Below the pieces are notes generated by a model, which did not search any database, was not told the origin of the DNA, and worked only from the letters and a program-made list of their open reading frames with translations. Below are positions 5,601 through 15,227 of a DNA stretch of 64,000 bases, piece by piece. The position numbers and the translations under genes were made by a program. Position 1 is the stretch's first letter. Each line of letters starts with the position of its first letter. Location: IMG/VR virus record IMGVR_UViG_3300020583_000010, positions 1-64,000 of that record. The stretch is one strand, 5' to 3'. The DNA comes from a virus.

Positions 5601-5855
5601 ACGCTGAGCCTTATCAGCTCTCCATGGCAACCTATTCTGACGGCAATGGTCCTTTTGTATGGACATCATGCCCTCTATGACACGCTGGCAGACTTCCCAC
5701 CACTGCTCTTTCGTACCGTCTTCTTTAATCCTGCTGTACGTTCTGAGAAACGTAATCTCACCTAGTGAATTACCTCCGGCATCCTTGAACCCCCAGTCTA
5801 CCGGCTTGTCTTTGTAAGTTTCGATAAAGTCAGTGGGAAGCCGGAAACTGAACAC
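2601..5855 (-). CDS. nrdJ: Class II (B12-dependent) ribonucleotide reductase, intein-containing
   Basis: Motifs RTYSR, PPGRGLW, NPCSE, VKPSG/T and a C-terminal CxxxxC. Confidence 0.95.
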   Translation of the reverse strand: MFSFRLPTDFIETYKDKPVDWGFKDAGGNSLGEITFLRTYSRIKEDGTKEQWWEVCQRVIEGMMSIQKDHCRQNRLPWRADKAQRTAQDAYDRMFNFKWLPPGRGLWMMGTSLVMEHRNSAALQNCSYISSEDITRADPSSPFTFLMEASMLGIGVGFDTLGSKKRLRIYEPSLTEYEVYQVPDTREGWVESVKKLLESYLMPNKPLLYLDTSKVRPAGDLIKTFGGTSAGPAPLERLHEKLHELFTARLEEGEVSELDVELIADIGNLIGVCVVSGNVRRSAELLLGEVTDENFHNLKNPDIYPARNKYSEDPGKSGWGWISNNSVLAEVGQDLSNLTEAISLNGEPGIVWMDVSRAYGRLIDPVNNKDHRAKGYNPCSEQTLESGECCTLVELFMNRHKDLKDFQQTAKLAFLYAKTVTLMATHWEKTNAIMQRNRRIGCSVSGVADFTDTNGMTKLRQWLDSTYATVQYYDEVYSEWLCVRESIKTTTVKPSGCRPWEALTTTDQGILTLEEIFTASGHSNNEVWHPFSGYSASQDGTSSRITKTYDNGKAEVFSVRMSYGMEVRSTGNHRWWVSRRYDRSKKTRWTTVNAWVRTDELQSGDVLEVIPGVYTSLTEAPLDRLDSRAISMRGDATEILQPVSMTPDIGWLLGYLWGDGAMSPGRYRLRFTDAIIENLEKAQRILLEVFGVKSSIHHKHGEGAFTLDIGSKMLWHWLIKNGVWKYFANDIDLIPEVVRRSSHETILAFLAGLIDADGHVAARSKENIIILGTASANFARHVQDVALSVGIVLGRSHNTKGENLQPEKSMWLMCLGPDTVPERLNMMTGHSWKMSNPRHPELPWSPHRRRTSCNTIFGKVTAVESMGEMDTFDIEVEDTHWYYAGAVKSHNTVSILAGSSPGAHWGPGGAYFNRAVRFAKDDPMVFLFKHSGYKVEVDVSNPETTVVVYFPIKSQAKRSQQDVSLFEKANLAVLLQRYWSDNSVSVTLTFDPETEKEHVGTILKMYDGSLKTVSFLPSGNKVYPQMPYTHISEEDFEAAEFELMPVDLSGIYQGLGLEAIGESFCQTDTCLIKEFEENVKTHEQ
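3183..4367 (-). mobile_element. Intein with LAGLIDADG homing endonuclease in NrdJ (395 aa)
   Basis: KPSG|CRPWEA...KSHN|TVS junctions; LLGYLWGDG and FLAGLIDADG blocks. Confidence 0.93.
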
Positions 5856-5892
5856 AGAAATGTCCTCTTTTTAGATTGGAAGGTGCTACTAA

Positions 5893-5900
5893 ATAATCGA
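5893..5900 (-). promoter_or_regulatory. Putative phage-sigma promoter motif (TCGATTAT)
   Basis: Member of the recurring intergenic YCGATKAT family; upstream of nrdJ. Confidence 0.55.
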
Positions 5901-5930
5901 CGTTCTTAACCCATTTAACACCCTACTGGG

Positions 5931-6131
5931 TTAATCTTCACCTAAACATTCACTAACTTCTCGTCGGTCCACATTGTTCCAGCGTATCTCTTCCCAGCAA
6001 TTCTCCACACTGCACTCATCATCCCCGTAGCAAGTGCCGCAAGACTCACACCAACCATCGCAGTTGAAGCCTTCAGTATCAGAGATATAACCCTGACAAC
6101 CACTGGGATCTTTACAGGTCATAATAGTCAT
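5931..6131 (-). CDS. Small Cys-rich (Zn-binding) protein
   Basis: Multiple CxxC-like motifs; overlaps the upstream gene. Confidence 0.6.
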   Translation of the reverse strand: MTIMTCKDPSGCQGYISDTEGFNCDGWCESCGTCYGDDECSVENCWEEIRWNNVDRREVSECLGED

Positions 6132-6366
6132 GCTCCAAGATATACGTCCGGAACCAGGTTACCGCCTCAATCATATCCTGTACTGTAGCCTGATGAGAAC
6201 CAGGCCACCCCGGAGTGTTAATGTGATCAAACCTGTCTAGAATGGTCAACTGGATGAGGCCGATATCCCAGCCGTCATCCATGAGGGTCCCGAATAGCTC
6301 GCTGGGAGGAAGCCTGTAAAGTACTTCTAGGAAACGTCCTAGCATGCTGTACAAGGTCTCTGTCAT
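6112..6366 (-). CDS. Hypothetical protein
   Basis: Tightly packed minus-strand ORF. Confidence 0.7.
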   Translation of the reverse strand: MTETLYSMLGRFLEVLYRLPPSELFGTLMDDGWDIGLIQLTILDRFDHINTPGWPGSHQATVQDMIEAVTWFRTYILEHDYYDL

Positions 6367-6369
6367 AGT

Positions 6370-6681
6370 TTAATCTTCGGTATTGCTATCTTCTCGTGCC
6401 TTGTTTAGGTCTGGCAACTCCAACACTCTCTCATAAGCATACCTGGAGCTACTAGGATCTTCATCGTGCCACTCAATTGCACGCTCCTCTATGGGGGTGT
6501 CTCCGTAGTAGCCCTTAGTAGCCCAGAACCAGCCCGGCTTGAATGGCTTCTCAGTAACAACGATTGACACATCATACTTATCTCGTTCAAAGACTAATAT
6601 ATCGGCAGCGTTGGTTATCCTGATGGAGAAGGAGTCCCCCGCAAGAGAGTAAGCGGAGAAGGGATTAATAAACTCGGTCAT
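6370..6681 (-). CDS. Hypothetical protein
   Basis: ATGA overlap with the upstream gene. Confidence 0.7.
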   Translation of the reverse strand: MTEFINPFSAYSLAGDSFSIRITNAADILVFERDKYDVSIVVTEKPFKPGWFWATKGYYGDTPIEERAIEWHDEDPSSSRYAYERVLELPDLNKAREDSNTED

Positions 6682-6992
6682 AGTTTATAGAAACTCACAT
6701 TCTTCAGAGTAGGGTTACCACACTTCAAGCAGTGAAGCTTTTGTCTAGGAAACCTAGACAAGAATTTACTTATCTTCCAGGCTATTCGCAATAGACGGGT
6801 GTGCTTATTGCATAGATATACGGTGTCTCCATCGTGTTCACACCCTTGATACGAGAATACAGCAGCCCAAGTCGCTTTGCTGCTGCAAGTATACCCGGGC
6901 AAGAGCATGCCGAACTCACATACCTTGTCTAGATCATAGTCCTCTAAGAGGTCTATGTCAATACCTACATCAGGAACAACTAGAGTATCCAC
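6678..6992 (-). CDS. Zn-finger protein starting at GTG directly after tRNA-Gly (paralog of 13708-13992)
   Basis: Pattern CE..C...A.W..CEH..LC..H..CxxC. The longer ORF-track start at 7106 overlaps a tRNA. Confidence 0.7.
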   Translation of the reverse strand: MDTLVVPDVGIDIDLLEDYDLDKVCEFGMLLPGYTCSSKATWAAVFSYQGCEHDGDTVYLCNKHTRLLRIAWKISKFLSRFPRQKLHCLKCGNPTLKNVSFYKL

Positions 6993-6993
6993 G

Positions 6994-7065
6994 AGCTTCA
7001 TGCCGGACACGATCCGGCGACTACACTTTGGAAGAGTGTCATGTTTCCAACTACACCAATGAAGC
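6994..7065 (-). tRNA. tRNA-Gly(TCC), atypical T-loop ATCGTGT
   Basis: Acceptor GCTTCAT/ATGAAGC with U73; ACACT-CTTCCAA-AGTGT; T-stem GCCGG/CCGGC. Confidence 0.88.
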
Positions 7066-7068
7066 AAG

Positions 7069-7158
7069 CCCTCGGTGCTCCGCAGTTCGTGGCCGCAGAC
7101 CGACACCGAGGGGTGTGTCAGCCCGAAAGACGTTTAGGTACCCATCAATCCTTCAGGC
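7069..7158 (-). ncRNA. Structured spacer RNA (two long hairpins)
   Basis: 11-bp stem 7148-7158/7121-7131 begins at trailer position 75; 9-bp stem 7104-7112/7069-7077. Confidence 0.5.
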
Positions 7159-7159
7159 G

Positions 7160-7233
7160 TATCCCTAGAGAGATTCGAACTCCCGACCTGTTGATTCGTA
7201 ATCAACTGCTCTAATCCACTGAGCTATAGAGAT
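7160..7233 (-). tRNA. tRNA-Arg(ACG)
   Basis: GTTGA-TTACGAA-TCAAC; canonical T-arm. Confidence 0.95.
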
Positions 7234-7238
7234 ATTGT

Positions 7239-7294
7239 GATAGACCACAGTCTGCTTACGCCACCGCAGTGGATCAGCGAATCTATAGCCTATC
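7239..7294 (-). ncRNA. Structured spacer RNA
   Basis: 12-bp stem (with GU pairs) begins at trailer position 75 of tRNA-Phe; internal CCAC/GTGG hairpin. Confidence 0.5.
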
Positions 7295-7295
7295 G

Positions 7296-7368
7296 CGCGT
7301 CCACTAGGAATCGGACCTAGTTCTCCAGGGCTTCAACCCGGCGCTTGAACCATTTCAGCTTTGGACAC
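7296..7368 (-). tRNA. tRNA-Phe(GAA), T-loop TCCGATT
   Basis: CCGGG-TTGAAGC-CCTGG. Confidence 0.88.
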
Positions 7369-7372
7369 TCAG

Positions 7373-7444
7373 TTGGCGGCCAAGGAATCGAACCTTGTAC
7401 ACACTCCGTATCAGAGAGCTGCTCTACCATTGAGCTAGCCACCA
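7373..7444 (-). tRNA. tRNA-Ile(GAT)
   Basis: GCTCT-CTGATAC-GGAGT; canonical T-arm. Confidence 0.92.
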
Positions 7445-7445
7445 T

Positions 7446-7521
7446 TGGGGTGAGATGCCGGTACCGACCCGTGCGTCTCTTGAGTCACAGTCAAGGATTC
7501 TACCTTTGAACTAATCTCACC
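7446..7521 (-). tRNA. tRNA-His(GTG), G-1 and CCA encoded, T-loop GTCGGTA
   Basis: CTTGA-CTGTGAC-TCAAG; G-1:C73 pair. Confidence 0.88.
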
Positions 7522-7522
7522 G

Positions 7523-7601
7523 AACGATCTGAAAGAGTCGAACTTTTTACCACGTGGGTTGCAACCACGCCCCAGCTGCCCGCTAAGTTAGGTCAGACCG
7601 C
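7523..7601 (-). tRNA. tRNA-Cys(GCA) with enlarged D-arm
   Basis: CGTGG-TTGCAAC-CCACG; U73; T-loop TTCGACT. Confidence 0.8.
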
Positions 7602-7617
7602 ATTATTAAGTTATCCG

Positions 7618-7690
7618 TACGCCCACTCAGATTCGAACTGAGGTCTCGTAGATTAAAAGTCTAGTACACTGACCACTGTGCTATAGGCGC
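7618..7690 (-). tRNA. tRNA-Lys(TTT)
   Basis: Anticodon loop CTTTTAA; canonical T-arm. Confidence 0.92.
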
Positions 7691-7711
7691 GCTAGTTCTA
7701 TTTAATTATCG

Positions 7712-7784
7712 TACACCCAGAGGGACTCGAACCCCCGACCCGAAGATTAAGAATCTCCTACTCTACCAACTGAGCTATAGGTGC
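7712..7784 (-). tRNA. tRNA-Lys(CTT)
   Basis: Anticodon loop TTCTTAA; canonical T-arm. Confidence 0.95.
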
Positions 7785-7836
7785 AAGTGTCCATGTAGAC
7801 GACCCTGGTCGTGGTACCTTGTCGGCCTTCTACTTC

Positions 7837-7865
7837 ATCTTACCACATGACCACACCCTGGGCAA
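7837..7865 (-). promoter_or_regulatory. Host sigma-A-type promoter for the tRNA array
   Basis: TTGCCC-N17-TAAGAT with TGn. Confidence 0.7.
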
Positions 7866-7894
7866 GACTTATTTCTCTGGCTAGGACTGAGCCA

Positions 7895-7969
7895 TGGAGC
7901 CCCATGAAGGAGTCGAACCCTCATCACCTGATTACAAAACAGGTGCACTCGCCGTTGTGCTAATAGGGC
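7895..7969 (-). tRNA. tRNA-Thr(TGT), CCA encoded
   Basis: Anticodon loop TTTGTAA; ends in TCCA. Confidence 0.92.
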
Positions 7970-7977
7970 GTATTAAA

Positions 7978-8172
7978 TTATTCTACTTCAGCCTCTTCAA
8001 CTGAAGTAGGTACAATCCTAGTTCTAACTTCTGGAGGGTCATAGTAACTGTCGGCTGTTATATACTGAGAAGGGAGTCGTAAAGTAGGCGCCCAATCAGA
8101 CCAGTCGTCATAGCAAGGATGAGCACGCCAGCTCCACTCAACAGTGTATGAAGCTAGGACTGTCTTCGCCAC
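7978..8172 (-). CDS. Hypothetical protein
   Basis: 64-aa ORF with a GGAAGG RBS, between tRNAs. Confidence 0.6.
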   Translation of the reverse strand: MAKTVLASYTVEWSWRAHPCYDDWSDWAPTLRLPSQYITADSYYDPPEVRTRIVPTSVEEAEVE

Positions 8173-8197
8173 TTTGCTGCCTTCCTATTATATAGCG

Positions 8198-8270
8198 TAC
8201 CTGAGGTCAGATTTGAACTGACACTGTCTTCCTTCTAAGGAAGTGTCTCCTACCGTTGGACTACCCAGGC
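8198..8270 (-). tRNA. tRNA-Leu(TAG)-like, short variable arm, 6-nt anticodon loop
   Basis: CTTCC-TTAGAA-GGAAG; scaffold matches the Leu(CAA) at 13994. Confidence 0.7.
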
Positions 8271-8280
8271 ATTAGAAGTA

Positions 8281-8385
8281 GTAGACCCGTATGTGACTCA
8301 CGCGCCCTTACTCCTAGGCTACGGTGTTCCCAAATGCGTTAGAGCATCTACAATTGCTCAGCTTCGGTAGTCGGCTAGGCTGAGC
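8281..8385 (-). ncRNA. Structured spacer RNA
   Basis: GCTCAGC/GCTGAGC hairpin plus a domain closed by GTAGA/TCTAC with internal CCGTA/TACGG pairing. Confidence 0.4.
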
Positions 8386-8390
8386 GGGAG

Positions 8391-8462
8391 CAGGGAATGA
8401 GAGGTTCGAACTCCCGACGCGCGGCTTTGGAGACCGCCGCTCTACCGCTGAGCTAATTCCCA
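8391..8462 (-). tRNA. tRNA-Trp(CCA)
   Basis: GCGGT-CTCCAAA-GCCGC; G73. Confidence 0.93.
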
Positions 8463-8466
8463 AAGA

Positions 8467-8578
8467 TGCTGGCAGATAGCCCCGAGACTAGTAAAAGGCA
8501 GATGCCTAAACCCTTACGGGTTCTCGTTCCTCGTACAGGCCGTGTTTCACTATTCCTTACCGCCCATTCAGGCCAGCA
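8467..8578 (-). ncRNA. ~112-nt structured RNA closed by a terminal stem
   Basis: TGCTGGC/GCCAGCA closing stem; internal AACCC-GTAA-GGGTT and AGGCA/TGCCT hairpins inside CGAGA/TCTCG. Confidence 0.5.
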
Positions 8579-8596
8579 ACTATATTTAGTTATAAG

Positions 8597-8669
8597 TCCG
8601 GAACCGGGGAGTCGAACCCCGTTTATCCTCATCCCAAATGAGGCGGATTAGCCGTCTTCCTCGTTCCGA
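8597..8669 (-). tRNA. tRNA-Pro(TGG)
   Basis: CCTCA-TTTGGGA-TGAGG; canonical T-arm. Confidence 0.88.
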
Positions 8670-8672
8670 GGG

Positions 8673-8790
8673 AGAAGACTGGCAGAGCCTTCGTATATTC
8701 GTTCAGCCTCACAGTGGCTACCTGTGGTTTCACATCGGGAGCTATCCTCGACGGCCTACTAGACATCTACTCGGGTTGCCAGTATCTTCC
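8673..8790 (-). ncRNA. ~118-nt structured RNA closed by a terminal stem
   Basis: GGAAGA(TA)CTGGCA pairs with TGCCAGTCTTCT; begins at position 75 of the upstream tRNA-like RNA. Confidence 0.5.
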
Positions 8791-8791
8791 G

Positions 8792-8862
8792 TGATAGGTA
8801 GGGAATCGAACCCTCCGCATATCTGCGTAGCCCGTTCTAGCGCTAACTAGGACTCGCCTATC
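8792..8862 (-). ncRNA. tRNA-like RNA lacking a D-arm and canonical anticodon
   Basis: Acceptor-like GATAGG/CCTATC with A73-CG trailer; T-arm AGGG-TTCGATT-CCCT; two internal hairpins. Confidence 0.65.
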
Positions 8863-8871
8863 TCACTGCTA

Positions 8872-9216
8872 TCAGAAGTGTAACAGTCCTTCAGCATCTA
8901 GTTTATTTACAACTTCTTCCGTTACCTCTATCACGCGCCATGGTCGGAAATCACGGTCACTTAAATGGTTCTTGGCCTTCATTCCTACCAGCATAAGGGC
9001 TCCAGCTTTGTCGGCTGCCCTTACATAAGTAATACATGGCTCATAAATCCTGTAATACTTACCATCACGCTTAACCTTAACTACATTAGTAGTTAAGACC
9101 TGATATTCTACTTGCCAAATCTTCATTTCTTCTGGACTGCTGACTTTTTCTACTAGACTTACTTCGCCTTCACTATTAACTTCTTCGTGACGGCTAACTT
9201 TTTCTGAGCTACTCAT
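8872..9216 (-). CDS. Hypothetical protein
   Basis: 114-aa ORF with an AAGGAG RBS. Confidence 0.75.
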   Translation of the reverse strand: MSSSEKVSRHEEVNSEGEVSLVEKVSSPEEMKIWQVEYQVLTTNVVKVKRDGKYYRIYEPCITYVRAADKAGALMLVGMKAKNHLSDRDFRPWRVIEVTEEVVNKLDAEGLLHF

Positions 9217-9274
9217 TTATTACTCCTTGCTAGCAACTTGGGTCCATTTAGGCCCATTCTTTAGTTACTGTGCG

Positions 9275-9348
9275 TAGCGGGAATGGGAGTCGAACCCATG
9301 TAGTTGGCTTATGAGGCCACGCCGGAACCACCTCCGGTCTATCCCGCA
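9275..9348 (-). tRNA. tRNA-Met(CAT), initiator-like 1:72 mismatch
   Basis: Anticodon loop CTCATAA; acceptor TGCGGGA/TCCCGCT. Confidence 0.85.
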
Positions 9349-9351
9349 CTG

Positions 9352-9636
9352 CTAGATGTAGGATCTCGGCCGACTCGGAAAACTCCTCGACATGAGGTCC
9401 TGCCGTGCTCCCCTACATCTAGTTTGTCAATCACAGTTGTGCCGAGCAACTCATTGACTCTGGGCTATATGCCTAACTCTTTCGAGTTGGTAGGGATAGT
9501 TCTCCAGCTATTAAGTTAGTGTCCGGTAGGTTAGCTCGGTCATGACTCCGAGGGTCACCGGACTGGAGCGCTGTGCCGATAGCGGCCAGTCTTTCACTCT
9601 TTATATTCTCCATTTCAGAGGTTGATAGCCTCTGAT
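9352..9636 (-). ncRNA. Multi-hairpin non-coding leader or ncRNA set between the promoter and tRNA-Met
   Basis: Perfect 11-bp stem 9352-9362/9412-9422 and at least five other hairpins; no credible minus-strand ORF. Confidence 0.55.
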
Positions 9637-9642
9637 GTCTCT

Positions 9643-9671
9643 ATTCTAGCATCGGCAGCCCGTTCTGTCAA
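9643..9671 (-). promoter_or_regulatory. Host sigma-A-type promoter for the ncRNA/tRNA array
   Basis: TTGACA-N17-TAGAAT with TGn. Confidence 0.85.
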
Positions 9672-10246
9672 GTGCTGGTTAGAATCTTCTTCTGCCTGAT
9701 CTCGTCCCGCAGTTTCTTCAAACCCCCGAAGTACGTACTTTCGGGCATTCCTTCTAGAGGAAGGATTTCCTTGAGCTGGTACCCTTCCATTCGCCGCCCT
9801 AGTACTCTAGGGAACTTAGGATTTATCTTCTCAGCCAGTTCTAACATTCTGTCTATCTCATTGTTTATGAAACAGATAGAGTCAGGGTCCCACTCGAAGT
9901 CCGTAGCCTCATCGTGAGCCTCTTCTAGAGGATAAGTATTATTTACTATGAACTTCTTAGCCCGGACAGTGTCAGAGCGGCCTTCACGGCTTCTCAGGCC
10001 ATCAATAATGCGTTGTTTTATCATCGTACAGATATACCCGTTAAGCTTGTAACCTTTGTCAGGACTGAAGTTAATCAAAGCCTGCCAGAGAGCCTCATAG
10101 GCGTCTGAGTACATCAGCCAGGGGTCCCGAACATATGTCTTAGAGAACTCAGTGCGAATTATAGCAAAGACTGCTCCTTGATGCTTTCTTATAGCATCAT
10201 TTATCTCTGAGCAGCACTCGCACTTAGGAGTTGACATTCTCTTCAT
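9668..10246 (-). CDS. Sigma-70-family factor (divergent)
   Basis: Region-2-like ALWQALINFSPDKG..YI..MIKQRIIDGLR; region-4-like EGYQLKEI...LKKLR. Confidence 0.75.
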   Translation of the reverse strand: MKRMSTPKCECCSEINDAIRKHQGAVFAIIRTEFSKTYVRDPWLMYSDAYEALWQALINFSPDKGYKLNGYICTMIKQRIIDGLRSREGRSDTVRAKKFIVNNTYPLEEAHDEATDFEWDPDSICFINNEIDRMLELAEKINPKFPRVLGRRMEGYQLKEILPLEGMPESTYFGGLKKLRDEIRQKKILTST

Positions 10247-10484
10247 CTATATGTGATCTTTCCCAGATTTCGTATTCATCGGCTTCACAGTCGTCACAGA
10301 TCGTGTCATCTGCGGGCACATGACCGCCGCATTCCGGGCACTCACGACACAGGGGTAACCCCATCTGAGCAAACTCAGGATCTGTACATATGTAACAACT
10401 GTCACTGTAGACCACTGGAACAGAGACTACATCATCTAAAAGAAGATGGTAAGCCGGATCACTAGGTTTCATTGGAAGACTCAT
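10224..10484 (-). CDS. Zinc-ribbon protein
   Basis: Several CxxC pairs. Confidence 0.7.
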   Translation of the reverse strand: MSLPMKPSDPAYHLLLDDVVSVPVVYSDSCYICTDPEFAQMGLPLCRECPECGGHVPADDTICDDCEADEYEIWERSHIDEENVNS

Positions 10485-10747
10485 GCCTCAGCCCACTGAC
10501 TTGTGTTAGCCAGAGCACTATAGTCCCAGCCCTTCATGAAAATCTCATTAAGCTTGGCTGCATACTCTTGTGCCATCTTCTCAGGAATCAGCCTAGACAT
10601 ATCAGGATCTTGGATAGCAGCAGCCAACGGTGCAAAGTTTATCTTAGTTATCTGCGTGCTGATAACCGTTCCGTCAAAAGCGACAGCATCTTCCCAGATC
10701 TTGAAGTCTTTTGCCCGGTATCGCAGCGAGTAAGCGCCTTCAATCAT
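10481..10747 (-). CDS. Hypothetical protein
   Basis: GAGGAG RBS; downstream of a promoter. Confidence 0.7.
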   Translation of the reverse strand: MIEGAYSLRYRAKDFKIWEDAVAFDGTVISTQITKINFAPLAAAIQDPDMSRLIPEKMAQEYAAKLNEIFMKGWDYSALANTSQWAEA

Positions 10748-10770
10748 TAGTGTCTCCTCTCTAGGCTTCT

Positions 10771-10799
10771 AGCGTATCACCTAGGCACTACTATGTCAA
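10771..10799 (-). promoter_or_regulatory. Host sigma-A-type promoter
   Basis: TTGACA-N17-TACGCT with TGn. Confidence 0.75.
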
Positions 10800-10802
10800 G
10801 TC

Positions 10803-11504
10803 TCACGCATAAGGCTCTAGAGGGATATCCTGATAAGTAGCCGGAGCTATTGCTCTGAGCTGACTGAGTAGTTCTGTAGCCAGCTCTAGTATCTCAGCGT
10901 CAGCGTGGATATTATATCGTTTCCCCAGGACATCTCTCCAGGCTCTGTGGTTTGCTGTCACCGTCATAGCCACCGGGGCGCAGTTGGGAAGTACTGACCT
11001 CGCGGCTTCGCGCGCCTGCTTACGGGTCTTGCCGTCGTGGACAAGCTGGTCTGCCAGCACCTGATAAGCCACAAGAGCACGTGTATACTGGTCCTCAATG
11101 ATCTTTTCCATTGAAGCATTACCTCTGATGGCCGGAGGTATTACGGGTCTGGTATTACTGTAATCCACATAACGCTGGCTCTCCACACTAAAGCTCACAT
11201 GTCGATGTCTAGTCAGCTCTGCTAAGAGACTTCGGCTCACGCCTTCGATATAAAAAGTAGCGGAAGCATGCTCTAAAACGCTGAAGTGCTGCTGTTTAAG
11301 TATGTTAGCTAAATAACTCTCATCAGTGGCAGTCTTAGGGTTAGGCATTTCCCAGGAAAGATAGCATGATCTGCCGCCGAAGTGGGCTAAACGGTCTGCA
11401 CTGTCGCCCTCATTAAGAGCATGGTAACGGTCAAACTCTGTGCCTTCGATAGGCCAGAAGTTGTCTTCGCCTATCAGAGTAGAAGCTAGCAAAGTCACGC
11501 GCAT
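10803..11504 (-). CDS. thyX: Flavin-dependent thymidylate synthase
   Basis: Motifs HFSVLEH, RHRHVSFSVESQRY (RHRx7S) and AREAARSVLP. Confidence 0.95.
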   Translation of the reverse strand: MRVTLLASTLIGEDNFWPIEGTEFDRYHALNEGDSADRLAHFGGRSCYLSWEMPNPKTATDESYLANILKQQHFSVLEHASATFYIEGVSRSLLAELTRHRHVSFSVESQRYVDYSNTRPVIPPAIRGNASMEKIIEDQYTRALVAYQVLADQLVHDGKTRKQAREAARSVLPNCAPVAMTVTANHRAWRDVLGKRYNIHADAEILELATELLSQLRAIAPATYQDIPLEPYA

Positions 11505-12147
11505 TTGTATTCCTTTGATAGTATGTTATCGCTAGAGTATCCAGTAACATGTCTAGTGGCGGAATCTCGCCATCCCAGTACCAGCTCATTCCGAAGACGC
11601 TCTTATTGGTGTCTTCGAGCATGTGGAAACCCGGAAGGCCCTTAAAATGTGGGAGCATCAACCAGTAAGCACGACTATAGTTCTCCTCCCCGTAAAAAGT
11701 AAGATAGCCGCTGTTTGGAAAGCCTTGACAAGAGCACCAGGTAGTAACTCCCTGCTGCCATAGCCATCGGAGGACTGGGTAAAGCTTCTCATCTACAGCA
11801 GTAGGTCTTAGAGCATAGTCATCAAAAGCAGCAGCTAATAGTCCATTAACAGCAGGAACTACTACGATAGAATGATCACCAGCTATAAGATTCTCACAGT
11901 CATACCCTGTGATGTTCTTGACTGCTGCTCTCTTAGTGTGCTCTTTACGGAACTTAGGAAGTTTACTCCAGTCTACAACTGGAGGACTCTCAGGCCATAT
12001 ATCATCGGAGAGAGCGCCCTGATCTATAGGCTTAACACTAGCACTCCATAAAAAGGCAGCCTTGGCAGTCCACACTTCTCTTTGCTCAGTACTGAGGCTT
12101 TCTAAATCTGAGTAATCCCAATCTATGTCATCTGAAGTTCCTGTCAT
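11431..12147 (-). CDS. Hypothetical protein (TxxSCQG motif)
   Basis: 238-aa ORF with an ATGA overlap. Confidence 0.7.
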   Translation of the reverse strand: MTGTSDDIDWDYSDLESLSTEQREVWTAKAAFLWSASVKPIDQGALSDDIWPESPPVVDWSKLPKFRKEHTKRAAVKNITGYDCENLIAGDHSIVVVPAVNGLLAAAFDDYALRPTAVDEKLYPVLRWLWQQGVTTWCSCQGFPNSGYLTFYGEENYSRAYWLMLPHFKGLPGFHMLEDTNKSVFGMSWYWDGEIPPLDMLLDTLAITYYQRNTNARDFASFYSDRRRQLLAYRRHRV

Positions 12148-12431
12148 CGTTCAAGACCTTCCAGCCACGTATAGCCATCAGGCCTGTTACCGCCCCACGC
12201 GTCCCTATGCTGTGGGTTCCGGAACCATGTGGAAGGACATGGAGCCACAGCCTCATACAGACCATTAGTATCAACTCCCCACGGAATACCTAACTCATCA
12301 TCTTCTCCGGTAAAGGCAATACGCGCGGCTTCTCTATACTCTTGATACTGAGGATACCGGTCACAGTATATGCACTTTGACGGTGCATGCAGAATTGAAG
12401 GGTCACAGTGTGGCATAGTAGGAAGCGTCAT
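12144..12431 (-). CDS. Hypothetical protein
   Basis: HC..H..CxxC motif; ATGA overlap. Confidence 0.7.
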   Translation of the reverse strand: MTLPTMPHCDPSILHAPSKCIYCDRYPQYQEYREAARIAFTGEDDELGIPWGVDTNGLYEAVAPCPSTWFRNPQHRDAWGGNRPDGYTWLEGLER

Positions 12432-12994
12432 ACTAGGATAGCTCCCTTATCTACAAGGAGTTTGGCCACTCCATAAGGAGTTGCATAACCTGTCCACTGT
12501 CCTGGGAATAGAGGTTTTCCGGCCTTACTGTATGCGATAGCTGCCAAGGTACTACAGATAATGTGACCTTCATCATCTATGTAGTCATGCAGTCCTGGCA
12601 CTGGAATATGGAATCTGTGTGCAGCTATTGAGAAGTAGTCAAGTGACGAGTATGGAGCACCCACCATGGCTTCGGCATACTTTACAATATTCAGACCTGT
12701 AGCTTTATCAATGCCTAGAAGTCCGGTGCTGAACAGGATAGGACGGCCGTCTAGGTACTCTGAGATAGGCGCTATGCGAGCTCCGCCTACCTCTGCCTCA
12801 ATCAGAGTTGTGGCATCTCTTACTACAGCTACATGTGAGAAGACACTGAGTTTCTTAGCTTCAACGCTGAACGGATGAAACAGCCGGTTACTATTGAGCA
12901 GTTCGCCGAAACCTATAAGTTTTCCAACCTCACCAGTGATATGTGTAGCTAGGAGGTCGCCGGGCTGTAATGCCTCTGGAACCGTAGTTGTCAT
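12428..12994 (-). CDS. Permuted papain-like NlpC/P60 (YiiX/YaeF-type) amidase
   Basis: LQPGDLL, SHVAV, IEA, GAPY and ICSTL in the permuted order (His before Cys). Confidence 0.8.
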   Translation of the reverse strand: MTTTVPEALQPGDLLATHITGEVGKLIGFGELLNSNRLFHPFSVEAKKLSVFSHVAVVRDATTLIEAEVGGARIAPISEYLDGRPILFSTGLLGIDKATGLNIVKYAEAMVGAPYSSLDYFSIAAHRFHIPVPGLHDYIDDEGHIICSTLAAIAYSKAGKPLFPGQWTGYATPYGVAKLLVDKGAILV

Positions 12995-13122
12995 AGGGTA
13001 CTGTGCTCCTCGTCAGCATAGAGAAGCACTCCTGGCTCCTCGCAAATGAAACAGATCGAGCGGCGTTCAGGAAATTCTTTCCATTGAATTCCTTCACATT
13101 CAGGACATGCAAAGTCTACCAT
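12991..13122 (-). CDS. Small zinc-ribbon protein
   Basis: MVDFACPEC..CFIC; ATGA overlap. The longer ORF-track start overlaps the regulator gene. Confidence 0.5.
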   Translation of the reverse strand: MVDFACPECEGIQWKEFPERRSICFICEEPGVLLYADEEHSTL

Positions 13123-13147
13123 GTCATAGCTTGAAGCAGTTACTCGT

Positions 13148-13684
13148 TCAGCTACTCTGGTTTGCGGGTACAAGGCCGCTGGCAATCTCTGCGAGCTCAA
13201 GTTCAATCGACGCCTCACGAATGACTTGTGATGGAGGACAGCCAAGCGCTTCAGATATCTTGGGTAGAGCATGCGATGACAAATCCTTCCGGCCACGTTC
13301 TACATCAGAGAGGTGAGCGATAGAAATGAAAGCAATCTTAGAGAACTCACGCATAGTGAATCCGAGAGCTAAGCGCCGCTGCCTGATAACAGAACCAAGA
13401 GCTGTACTAAAACTGTACTCACTCGGCTTCGATGTATGACTCTTCCTCTTTCGAGGTTCTGGATTACGGCTGATCTTTCCGTGAAATTCTCCTCCAGCGA
13501 CTCCGGTAAACCCCTCATACACTGCCTCCCCGCACAGCTTCTTAATGGGACACGAATTACAGTATGGGGCCCACTTCCTGGCTTCTAGCTCTTTCGCTGA
13601 GGAAGGAAAGAAGATTTCAGGGTCAGAAACATCTCTGCACATAGCTTCATCAGAATGGGATATAGTAAAGGTTACCGGAATCAT
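13148..13684 (-). CDS. WhiB-like Fe-S domain fused to a ClgR-like XRE HTH
   Basis: C..DPEIFFP..CxxCP....C..GVAGG, then IRQRR..TMRE..ISIAHLSDVERGRKDLSS. Confidence 0.85.
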   Translation of the reverse strand: MIPVTFTISHSDEAMCRDVSDPEIFFPSSAKELEARKWAPYCNSCPIKKLCGEAVYEGFTGVAGGEFHGKISRNPEPRKRKSHTSKPSEYSFSTALGSVIRQRRLALGFTMREFSKIAFISIAHLSDVERGRKDLSSHALPKISEALGCPPSQVIREASIELELAEIASGLVPANQSS

Positions 13685-13690
13685 GTACTC

Positions 13691-13719
13691 ACCTTAGCAA
13701 GTTCTTGTCACTTTGTCAA
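13691..13719 (-). promoter_or_regulatory. Host sigma-A-type promoter (leaderless)
   Basis: TTGACA-N17-TAAGGT with TGn; 6 nt to ATG. Confidence 0.8.
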
Positions 13720-13992
13720 GGGCTCGAACCATACATCTTCCACTGGAGTGTACACACCCATATCGTTGCATTCTCCGCACACTATCTCCTCTAGAAGGAA
13801 GTTTGTATTATGATACATATCCCATTGTTCTAAATAGTGGTTACGGCATAGAAAAGTAGGATCAGAGTGCTCACAGTCTGAGACATAGTAAGCTACCCAT
13901 TCAGCTTGAGACTGACAGCTCTCCATCTCACAGGATGGTCTGAAGTTGAGATGTGATATCTCGTCTAAAGTAACATCTGGTTGCTGTTTCAC
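13708..13992 (-). CDS. Zn-finger protein starting at GTG directly after tRNA-Leu(CAA) (paralog of 6678-6992)
   Basis: CE..C..AEW..CEH..LC..H..CxxC. The ORF-track start at 14052 lies inside the tRNA. Confidence 0.7.
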   Translation of the reverse strand: MKQQPDVTLDEISHLNFRPSCEMESCQSQAEWVAYYVSDCEHSDPTFLCRNHYLEQWDMYHNTNFLLEEIVCGECNDMGVYTPVEDVWFEPLTK

Positions 13993-13993
13993 G

Positions 13994-14066
13994 TACCCCG
14001 AGCCGGATTCGAACCGGCGCTGTGCAGGACTTGAATCTGCCGCCTCTACCACTGGGCTACCGGGGC
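13994..14066 (-). tRNA. tRNA-Leu(CAA), short variable arm
   Basis: GCAGA-TTCAAGT-CCTGC; canonical T-arm. Confidence 0.88.
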
Positions 14067-14070
14067 TTGT

Positions 14071-14280
14071 TTATTTTACTAGCTGATAGTTACTTCCACA
14101 TAATATAGGATTTTGATCTCCCTTATTATGTCCATTCTGTATCTCACCAACGTACCACAGTCCAGAAGCATTCTTATACTGTGCTACTATCTTCCACTGT
14201 GTGTCAGACTGTGTGTCACTAGGATAGTTAGGGTCAGGAGCCAGCTGTACAATATCTCCGACTTTCCATACTGCTGTCAT
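14071..14280 (-). CDS. Small SH3-like hypothetical protein
   Basis: MTAVWKVGDIVQL with an AAGGA RBS; the longer start overlaps a tRNA. Confidence 0.65.
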   Translation of the reverse strand: MTAVWKVGDIVQLAPDPNYPSDTQSDTQWKIVAQYKNASGLWYVGEIQNGHNKGDQNPILCGSNYQLVK

Positions 14281-14305
14281 AACTATCCTTACTACTAGAT
14301 TAAAG

Positions 14306-14379
14306 TAGGCCCTGAGCGGATTGAACGCTCCTCTAAGATGGATATAAGCCACCTTCTGACCACCAGCCAGCCAAGGCCC
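14306..14379 (-). tRNA. tRNA-Ile(TAT), atypical D-arm
   Basis: AGGTGG-CTTATAT-CCATCT; acceptor GGGCCTT/AGGGCCT with A73; T-arm GAGCG-TTCAATC-CGCTC. Confidence 0.8.
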
Positions 14380-14402
14380 AAGAGCCCCTAAGGGCTAATT
14401 AA

Positions 14403-14696
14403 TCAGATTTTGATCTGCGCCTGATTAAGGGTTACGCTTAGACGAGTCGCCATCTCGGCCAGCAGAATGAAGGGAACTGATACCGCAGAAGGAATTCTGA
14501 CGCTCTTAGAAGAAACGTCAAACTCCAGTTGAAACTTCGGATAAGTATCATTTACTACCTTCACTGAAGACAACTGAGGATTTCCTTTCTCATCATCCTC
14601 ATAGCCTTTGCTGACCTTTACAAGTGGCTTAGCCTCAGGCTCTTCATTCTGAACCTTGAAACTAGGAGCGTTGGAAGACGCTGATGCAGATGCCAT
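14403..14696 (-). CDS. Hypothetical protein
   Basis: AAGGA RBS; packed operon. Confidence 0.7.
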   Translation of the reverse strand: MASASASSNAPSFKVQNEEPEAKPLVKVSKGYEDDEKGNPQLSSVKVVNDTYPKFQLEFDVSSKSVRIPSAVSVPFILLAEMATRLSVTLNQAQIKI

Positions 14697-14706
14697 ATGT
14701 TATTCC

Positions 14707-14904
14707 TTACTTGGTTAGCTGAGCAACGCGCTCGGCTAGCTGGGGTACGGTAAATGACTTTCCTACCTTACCGGCTACGTACTGTTGTACGAATACTGGA
14801 GTAGTCAGCTCAGCAGCTACACTGAGAGCCTCCGCCATAGTGTCAGCCTCTCCCATACGAATAGCAGGCTTAGAGTCTGACAGGACTAGATACATCTTAC
14901 GCAT
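14707..14904 (-). CDS. Hypothetical protein
   Basis: AAGGAG RBS. Confidence 0.7.
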   Translation of the reverse strand: MRKMYLVLSDSKPAIRMGEADTMAEALSVAAELTTPVFVQQYVAGKVGKSFTVPQLAERVAQLTK

Positions 14905-15192
14905 TCATGCTCCTTTTGTAGTCCCGGAATTACCAGCCGGGTAGTTCTTGTTGTTCCACTTATCTACTAGAATCTGAGTTCTCTTATCTTTAGACTCTGA
15001 CCAGGCCCACCCGCACCCGCCGTTATCAGGATGATCTACCATATGCTGCTCACGTACTCCTAGGTACTGCATAATAGTACCTAGAGTATATGGAAAAGTT
15101 TGACTAACTGAACCGTCTGGGTTCTCTGCAATCTTAGGACTTTTCCAGTCAGTGAGACTACGTTCGCACTTTGGACACCGATCTCGACTCAT
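14905..15192 (-). CDS. Hypothetical protein (N-terminal CxxC)
   Basis: Leaderless start after a promoter. Confidence 0.75.
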   Translation of the reverse strand: MSRDRCPKCERSLTDWKSPKIAENPDGSVSQTFPYTLGTIMQYLGVREQHMVDHPDNGGCGWAWSESKDKRTQILVDKWNNKNYPAGNSGTTKGA

Positions 15193-15198
15193 GCTTAG

Positions 15199-15227
15199 AT
15201 ATTAGCATGTCTCGGGCCACTTGTCAA
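15199..15227 (-). promoter_or_regulatory. Host sigma-A-type promoter (leaderless)
   Basis: TTGACA-N17-TAATAT with TGn; 6 nt to ATG. Confidence 0.85.

Follow-up and report, generated by a model that had tools for sequence, protein, structure and literature searches.

Two tRNA genes of a soil phage abut GTG-started zinc-finger genes and possibly punctuate leaderless messages

Background

Can the excision of a transfer RNA (tRNA) create the beginning of a neighbouring messenger RNA (mRNA) in a bacterial virus? This question is raised by IMG/VR record IMGVR_UViG_3300020583_000010, a virus genome from soil metagenomes (126,028 bp, 46.4% G+C, 25 tRNA genes, CheckV completeness 94; hereafter the phage), of which the first 64 kb form the window analysed here. 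At two places on its minus strand the 3' end of a tRNA gene, tRNA-Gly(UCC) in one case and tRNA-Leu(CAA) in the other, is followed without spacer by a GTG codon opening a reading frame for a small Cys/His-rich protein of the zinc-finger type (gene 1 and gene 2, two members of a family of four in this genome; Table 1). An initial annotation made from the letters of the sequence had proposed that cleavage after C74 matures these tRNAs and at the same time yields mRNAs that begin with 5'-GUG. In our estimate the odds are about even (0.5) that tRNA excision at the two junctions makes messages with little or no leader, in the style of mitochondrial punctuation.

The mechanism would run as follows. 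Both tRNAs and the genes behind them would be transcribed together in long minus-strand transcripts, and a host endonuclease acting on tRNA 3' ends would cut at the tRNA end. Cleavage after C74 would leave 5'-P-GUG, a truly leaderless message, and cleavage after N73 would leave 5'-P-C-GUG, with a leader of 1 nucleotide (nt). A single cut would both mature the tRNA and create the 5' end of the downstream mRNA, which the actinobacterial 70S ribosome would read from its terminal GUG without a Shine-Dalgarno (SD) sequence; from gene 1, ribosomes would pass to the next gene via an ATGA overlap. The anatomy, the start codons, the protein family and the leaderless gene layouts elsewhere in the phage are shown by the sequence; co-transcription, the cut site, the mode of translation and the actinobacterial host are what we infer.

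tRNA ends and start codons

The juxtaposition of tRNA and GTG is confirmed at both loci. On the minus strand the tRNA-Gly end reads ...gaagc-t-c and continues with GTG at 6992-6990, and the tRNA-Leu end reads ...cggggt-a-c and continues with GTG at 13992-13990; both codons occupy tRNA positions 75-77. ARAGORN draws the two cloverleaves with 7-bp acceptor stems, followed by t,c (Gly) and a,c (Leu). The Rfam tRNA model, for which both genes score above the gathering threshold of 29, has its last base at 6994 and 13994, the N73 of the two tRNAs, so that 6993 and 13993 are position 74. Coordinates from ARAGORN, Rfam and the sequence itself thus agree with the initial annotation that a GTG directly follows C74 of tRNA-Gly(TCC) and tRNA-Leu(CAA).

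The base at position 74 is shared by the whole tRNA set. All 25 tRNA genes of the phage carry C74, and a full CCA is encoded only in tRNA-Thr (7895-7969). Position 75 is G in 15 genes, T in nine and C in the one that encodes CCA; A does not occur there. In Streptomyces phage Alone3, 30 of 30 tRNAs likewise have C74. The shared C74 looks like a determinant for a host tRNA 3' endonuclease or CCA-adding enzyme. Since the phage yields no match to the CCA-adding enzyme family PF01743, a host enzyme would complete the tRNA.

Table 1. Location of the two junctions and of the surrounding features (window coordinates)
Feature	Position	Strand	Remarks
tRNA-Gly(UCC)	6993..7065	minus	ARAGORN; Rfam RF00005 55.8 bits; N73 = U 6994, C74 = 6993; CCA not encoded
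tRNA-Leu(CAA)	13993..14066	minus	ARAGORN; Rfam RF00005 49.1 bits; 74 nt; N73 = A 13994, C74 = 13993
Gene 1, zinc-finger family, 104 amino acids (aa)	6678..6992	minus	GTG start; AlphaFold2 mean pLDDT (predicted local distance difference test) 88.3
Gene 2, zinc-finger family, 94 aa	13708..13992	minus	GTG start; 94-aa product in public collection
Gene after gene 1	6370..6681	minus	ATG 6681 overlaps gene 1 TGA as ATGA; anti-SD -2.2 kcal/mol
Upstream open reading frame, 69 aa	14071..14280	minus	AAGGA SD-like motif upstream; TAA ends 4 nt before tRNA-Leu
WhiB-like plus HTH (helix-turn-helix) gene	13148..13684	minus	23 nt after gene 2; own SD -6.9 kcal/mol
Promoter-like site	9643..9671	minus	TTGACA-17-TAGAAT, 11/12, TG-extended; heads tRNA array ending in tRNA-Gly and gene 1
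Promoter-like site	15199..15227	minus	ATG 15192 six nt past -10 box; open reading frame 14905..15192
Promoter-like site inside gene 1	6933..6961	minus	TTGACA-17-TATGAT, 11/12

Spacing between tRNAs and genes

Is zero spacing more than chance? An open reading frame (ORF) of at least 90 codons, starting with ATG or GTG, opens at 895 of 252,050 positions on both strands. The expected number of such ORFs at one fixed offset over 25 tRNA ends is 0.089, and the probability of finding two or more is 0.0036; this estimate ignores the membership of both genes in one four-member family. For seven other tRNAs a probable gene start lies at most 150 nt downstream, in each case 24 to 88 nt after position 74, and an SD-like motif is recognisable before five of these seven starts. 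Behind a second tRNA-Gly(TCC), at genome positions 94857-94928 on the plus strand, the likely gene start is an ATG at +40, rather than an in-frame GTG at +7. Consequently, tRNA-to-gene gaps in the phage are either zero or at least 24 nt. The start codons themselves are only weak evidence, because GTG makes up about 23% of the roughly called gene starts in the phage.

Alone3 is the sole cultured phage with any DNA match. Its small genes are interleaved with the 30 tRNAs at spacers of at least 13 nt; a GTG directly follows two of these tRNAs and opens only 25 and 3 codons. Such short frames suggest that the zero-gap gene layout is not general.

Translation starts and a distant homologue

Proteins of the family have 5-8 residues in front of their conserved acidic/Leu motif and their first Cys, the latter being invariant. 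Gene 1 has two canonical in-frame starts before this Cys, namely GTG 6992 and ATG 7001, the latter inside the acceptor stem. Gene 2 also has two, GTG 13992 and GTG 14052, the latter deep in the tRNA. GTG 6992 and GTG 13992 are supported as the real starts, because no other canonical in-frame start that lies outside the tRNAs preserves both the N-terminal motif and the first Cys. Public gene calls place the starts inside the tRNAs (P0003: ATG 7001, 107 aa; P0006 and P0009: GTG 14052, 114 aa). Near-identical relatives keep the gene-2 junction when compared at the protein level, the level at which relatives of 119,609 and 120,795 nt were judged as well. The gene at 6370..6681 is probably translationally coupled to gene 1; the ATGA overlap, together with the missing SD of this downstream gene, suggests that gene 1 is translated.

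A more distant comparison is offered by P0010, a protein of 121 aa encoded on a 5,030-nt contig of another metagenome and 49% identical to the gene 1 product. In the alignment Met18 falls on the codon GTG 6992. The preceding 17 residues do not look like protein. At 9 of the first 13 positions they agree with the window tRNA-Gly translated out of frame (E=1e-4). Codons for all 17 can moreover be chosen so as to give an anticodon arm (5-bp stem, U33, purine at position 37) and a T arm (5-bp stem, U55-C56), a set of tRNA constraints that only 5 of 200,000 random 17-mers satisfy; the implied anticodon is UCC or UUC. The P0010 junction was judged from the protein alone, in which the codon of Ser17 may be TCN or AGY. 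We infer that P0010 belongs to a phage clearly distinct from this one and that its gene, at a protein divergence of some 50%, would likewise stand directly behind a homologous tRNA-Gly. Given that the P0010 Met aligns to GTG 6992, ATG 7001 is not conserved.

Further searches for the arrangement were made among phages and metagenomes. Megablast of 6600-14400 against phages returned only a 74-nt tRNA match, in two records, and tblastn against phages gave no match for gene 1, gene 2, P0010, P0017 or the WhiB-like protein. No related locus was confirmed in viral contigs (searched with gene 1, gene 2, the WhiB-like protein, P0010 and P0026) or in metagenome contigs (searched with alignment A2 and with P0010).

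The zero spacing might be a historical by-product: the genes may have been inserted at, or squeezed against, tRNA ends and be poorly translated or started inside the tRNA. Genes and tRNAs are tightly packed here, tRNA-Leu being flanked by two ORFs at gaps of 4 nt upstream (to a stop codon) and 0 nt downstream, and small ORFs also lie among the tRNAs of Alone3; the starts at ATG 7001 and GTG 14052 in the public calls would agree with such a history as well. On the other hand, maturation of the tRNAs would destroy starts inside them, where the SD energies are -4.9 and -3.1 kcal/mol, and in P0010 the Met falls on GTG 6992 instead of ATG 7001. The 94-aa product of GTG 13992 is also present in public records. 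In addition, the proteins retain all conserved Cys/His columns, the next gene is coupled to gene 1 via ATGA, and two genes share one exact offset at P=0.0036. A mere by-product therefore seems rather improbable to us.

Promoters and transcription

Promoter searches give no sign of a transcription start at the junctions. The last 14 nt of either tRNA hold no -10-like hexamer or TANNNT, and no promoter-like site was called there; given the lack of a -10 box in the tRNA 3' ends, mRNA 5' ends at the junctions would not be promoter-made. The initial annotation had also listed five leaderless promoters in the phage, and these were recovered: at 5 of 45 promoter-like sites an ATG lies 4-7 nt after the -10 box and opens 83-100 codons (genome 113678 and 115743 on the plus strand; 83833, 77971 and 15227 on the minus strand). 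These layouts suggest that the phage uses leaderless translation elsewhere.

Long transcripts over both junctions are compatible with the predicted signals. Ten terminator-like sites were found in 5800..15200, of which one is on the minus strand (14522..14496), and consequently none lies between the promoter at 9671 and gene 1. The promoter-like site at 15199..15227 is a candidate head of a transcript with tRNA-Ile, tRNA-Leu and gene 2.

RNA data consist of contigs of four metatranscriptome runs that hold the phage at small shares (0.07-0.16). RNA-library contigs are located at 6612-6762, 13368-13525 and 13478-13655, for which DNA carry-over is possible; the surroundings of 13992 are represented solely by pieces of 18 nt (14002-14019) that belong to chimeric records. 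Contigs of runs X3 and X4 end at 9641 and 9627, beside the promoter at 9671..9643. In two metatranscriptome contig sets no feature is deeper than the stretch of about 290 nt between this promoter and tRNA-Met (depth 27.9 over 9369-9641 and 16.8 over 9346-9627); 9346-9671 on the minus strand possibly gives rise to a leader or small RNA of high abundance at the head of the tRNA array.

Host and cleavage at the tRNA end

The host is apparently an actinobacterium, as suggested by a WhiB-like domain, by the ThyX matches and by fold relatives in actinophages. The WhiB-like domain is N-terminal and fused to an HTH domain (Pfam Whib 23.5 bits, just below the cut-off of 23.6; HTH_3 36.4 bits). The best-listed matches of ThyX are from Streptomyces and Mycobacterium phages, at 53-57% identity.

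Published precedent provides a suitable cut in this group of hosts. Differential RNA sequencing studies report that tRNAs with an encoded CCA are cut between the two Cs, i.e. after C74, in P. acnes (PMC3848588), and likewise between the two Cs in S. coelicolor (PMC4681348). A cut after C74 would leave exactly 5'-P-GUG. Mycobacterial RNase E cleaves 5' of the cytidine in RN|CNU (PMC10641625), and C74-G75-U76 matches the C-N-U part of this motif. Cleavage after N73 would produce a tRNA to which CCA can be added directly, and a message that begins C-GUG, with a 1-nt leader.

Messages of this kind could be read by the likely host group, which is known to translate 5'-GUG messages well. In mycobacteria an ATG or GTG at the 5' end is described as both necessary and sufficient for translation to begin without a leader; in a mycobacterial reporter, starts behind a leader depended on an SD (PMC4633059). 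For E. coli, leaderless translation is stated to require a 5' phosphate (review PMC9031893). Both tRNA-linked genes start with GTG, and the five promoter-linked leaderless genes and the two SD-led paralogues with ATG; P0010 has an ATG as well, displaced by one base. This pattern fits the rule that position 75 is never A, as a weak piece of evidence.

Weighing of the mechanism and its alternatives

A number of observations weigh against the mechanism outlined above, the first of which concern the position of the cut. Cleavage after N73 and after C74 are both possible. The former would add one base to the message, and in Caulobacter each extra 5' base roughly halves leaderless translation (PMC8459731). 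The proposal that cleavage after C74 makes a 5'-GUG mRNA thus stands as far as published precedent and the lack of room for a leader are concerned, and is weakened by the equal possibility of an N73 cut. If the host were to cut downstream and trim back with an exonuclease, the start codon would be removed. Maturation of the tRNA and use of the message would in that case exclude each other, and the junction would act as a switch. Processing a few nucleotides downstream, with trimming proposed, has been reported for S. coelicolor tRNAs without encoded CCA (PMC4681348), and similar downstream cuts for P. acnes (PMC3848588). Such a switch, however, leaves translation of the uncut RNA unexplained, and the C74 shared by all the tRNA genes, with G or T behind it, speaks for cleavage at a fixed place at the tRNA end rather than a loose one; we regard the switch as quite improbable.

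A second group of observations concerns ribosome binding and the exact offset. The duplex energy with the anti-SD is -1.9 kcal/mol before GTG 6992 and -5.9 kcal/mol before GTG 13992, where the acceptor-stem GGGG lies 3 nt from the start; for comparison, the share of sites at -6 kcal/mol or lower is 58% among the best gene starts and 13% among internal control positions. The absence of an SD that the initial annotation had claimed for both genes is therefore clear for gene 1 and arguable for gene 2. By codon count the ATG of P0010 falls at position 76, one base further out, so that the exact offset is not conserved: the idea that homologues start at tRNA position 75 agrees with the apparent tRNA-Gly read-through before this Met and disagrees with its position.

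These data can be read differently. The same GTGs might be used on a precursor that is unprocessed or processed at its 5' side only, with ribosomes loading internally and the tRNA serving as a structured 5' untranslated region, so that excision would be unneeded. A mechanism without exact 5' end suits the one-base difference in offset between the window and P0010, and the GGGG could provide an SD-like contact on the unprocessed RNA. Internal loading is also favoured by the first 25 nt of the two messages, which are cheap to unfold (4.9 and 4.2 kcal/mol, where the random median is 6.5), even though this openness of the 5' ends is not distinctive. Yet the GGGG is base-paired within the tRNA acceptor stem, and with the start codon 2 nt from the 7-bp acceptor helix the footprint of the 30S subunit would presumably need the tRNA to melt. 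Furthermore, leadered starts needed an SD in the mycobacterial reporter (PMC4633059), and there is none before GTG 6992. We consider internal loading unlikely, though by no means negligible.

For gene 1 the promoter-like site at 6961..6933 has to be taken into account, which is possibly an internal promoter for downstream genes or a chance match. Should it be a working promoter for a product starting at ATG 6908 or for the downstream genes, GTG 6992 would be irrelevant. With 11/12 it is among eight genome sites at that score, and it has the same form as likely early promoters. However, a product from ATG 6908 would be missing the first Cys, a residue present in 25 of 25 family members. The -10 box is probably not conserved either, since a Tyr codon within it corresponds to Ser in P0010. 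Besides, punctuation by the tRNA would be compatible with an internal promoter. This explanation, which applies to gene 1 only, appears very improbable.

The remaining points concern the reach of the mechanism. Two of the four paralogues (114950-115261 and 118133-118438, both on the plus strand and found by a scan of all genome ORFs) have no tRNA upstream; they start with ATG, at anti-SD energies of -12.8 and -4.6 kcal/mol. Among the distant relatives listed, 21 of 23 have no N-terminal extension. The coupling of the whole family to tRNA processing, as initially suggested, was too broad, given the two paralogues with their own SD and no tRNA: the tRNA link belongs to these genes, not to the family. 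Finally, among the pieces listed no RNA contig covers 6861-7121 or bridges 13992, which is neutral on processing.

If punctuation by the tRNAs holds true, production of the zinc-finger protein, and of the products of the genes coupled to it, would be confined to the time and place of phage tRNA maturation, and the arrangement would form a compact expression module without promoter or SD. It would also explain why gene callers mis-start inside tRNAs (P0003, P0006/P0009, P0010) and why C74 is invariant in phage tRNA genes. A wider reading would be that actinophage tRNA genes double as mRNA-processing signals, where C74 followed by G or T marks the host cut and a GUG at position 75 makes a leaderless message, so that mitochondrial-style punctuation would have evolved independently in a virus. 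We offer this tentatively and rate it below an even chance.

The Cys/His-rich protein family

The paralogy of the two proteins, noted at first by eye, is well founded on a BLASTP match (12 of 30 identities, E=2e-5) and on the invariant Cys/His columns. Gene 2 matches the paralogue at 118133 with a phmmer E of 2.2e-8, and an alignment of the four paralogues has 12 invariant columns, including five Cys, one Trp and a C-E-H triplet. Two of the five leaderless-layout sites flank the tRNA-free paralogues.

A profile search of 1.84 billion representative proteins gave 27 hits at E<=1e-3. Four of these are the clusters of the paralogues, 21 are proteins with a length of 82-131 aa, and the other two are long and contain multiple repeats. 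The latter two were left out of the family alignment of 25 sequences, in which C25 and C61 do not vary, and W42 and another four Cys are at least 90% conserved. Gene 2 is matched by phrog_5905 (E=1.2e-6) and gene 1 by phrog_2857 (E=5e-4); the 'tail fiber' label of the latter was not adopted. Pfam gave no match at E<=0.01, Zn_ribbon_NOB1 remaining below threshold (E=0.049).

Structure comparison started from the AlphaFold2 model of the gene 1 protein (Table 1). Foldseek against PDB returned nothing at E<=0.001. With VIA-align no chain reached Z>=5; the best, at Z 4.6, was the Lsr2 dimerisation domain, and a B-box matched at Z 4.3 (root mean square deviation 1.9 over 41 residues). The best matches among predicted viral structures are uncharacterised (best E=1.9e-4), and the named ones come from Gordonia, Mycobacterium, Microbacterium and Arthrobacter phages. 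The family probably consists of small zinc-binding actinophage proteins.

Further features of the tRNA set

Rfam reports an additional tRNA at 7449-7520 on the minus strand (40.6 bits), just upstream of tRNA-Ile(GAT), which is absent from the ARAGORN calls. The tRNA-Leu(CAA) has a short variable region, whereas the usual bacterial tRNA-Leu has a long arm; the tRNA-Leu genes of Alone3 are likewise 74-75 nt long (9601-9674 and 9714-9788). The T loop of tRNA-Gly(UCC) (window 6994-7065, minus strand) reads ATCGTGT, with A54 and T58, against the usual TTCRANY; in the tRNA deduced from P0010, position 58 is A, as is usual.

Comparison with known systems

In the literature searched we found no description of leaderless mRNAs made by tRNA excision in bacteria or phages. 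The closest known system appears to be the tRNA punctuation of animal mitochondria, followed by plant t-elements and by the promoter-made leaderless mRNAs of actinobacteria. Under the model of Ojala, Montoya and Attardi, the tRNAs of animal mitochondria punctuate the transcript and leaderless mRNAs result. As in that system, the phage tRNAs abut coding sequence on one strand, their excision would set the mRNA 5' end, and there is no SD. Differences are that here we deal with a phage, with 2 of 25 tRNAs, with a GUG start and with enzymes that would be bacterial, namely RNase P plus a putative 3' endonuclease.

Co-transcripts of tRNAs and mRNAs that are separated by tRNA processing occur in E. 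coli, in the tufB operon and in secG-leuU, where the genes keep a leader and an SD. With both systems the phage would share the presence of tRNAs and protein genes on one transcript, but the phage junctions are without spacer.

Cleavage by the E. coli toxin MazF leaves a 5'-OH. MazF-made leaderless mRNAs have been described in E. coli and are said not to be reproducible (review PMC9031893). There, too, an endonuclease instead of a promoter was proposed to create the leaderless message; however, MazF is a stress toxin cutting at ACA, whereas the cut in the phage would be part of housekeeping tRNA processing and give a 5' phosphate.

The t-elements of plant mitochondria (PMC1920247) resemble the phage junctions in that tRNA or tRNA-like structures set mRNA ends through tRNA-processing enzymes. 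Unlike them, the phage elements score as ordinary tRNAs (Table 1) and are probably used as tRNAs too. With the promoter-made leaderless mRNAs of actinobacteria (PMC4633059, PMC4681348) the phage messages would share a terminal AUG or GUG read without SD; in contrast to these, no -10 box is present at the phage junctions, and a cleavage-made 5' end with a monophosphate would be needed. If the cut is real, the mitochondrial rule by which excision of a tRNA makes the neighbouring message translatable would have a counterpart in a bacterial virus at these two junctions.

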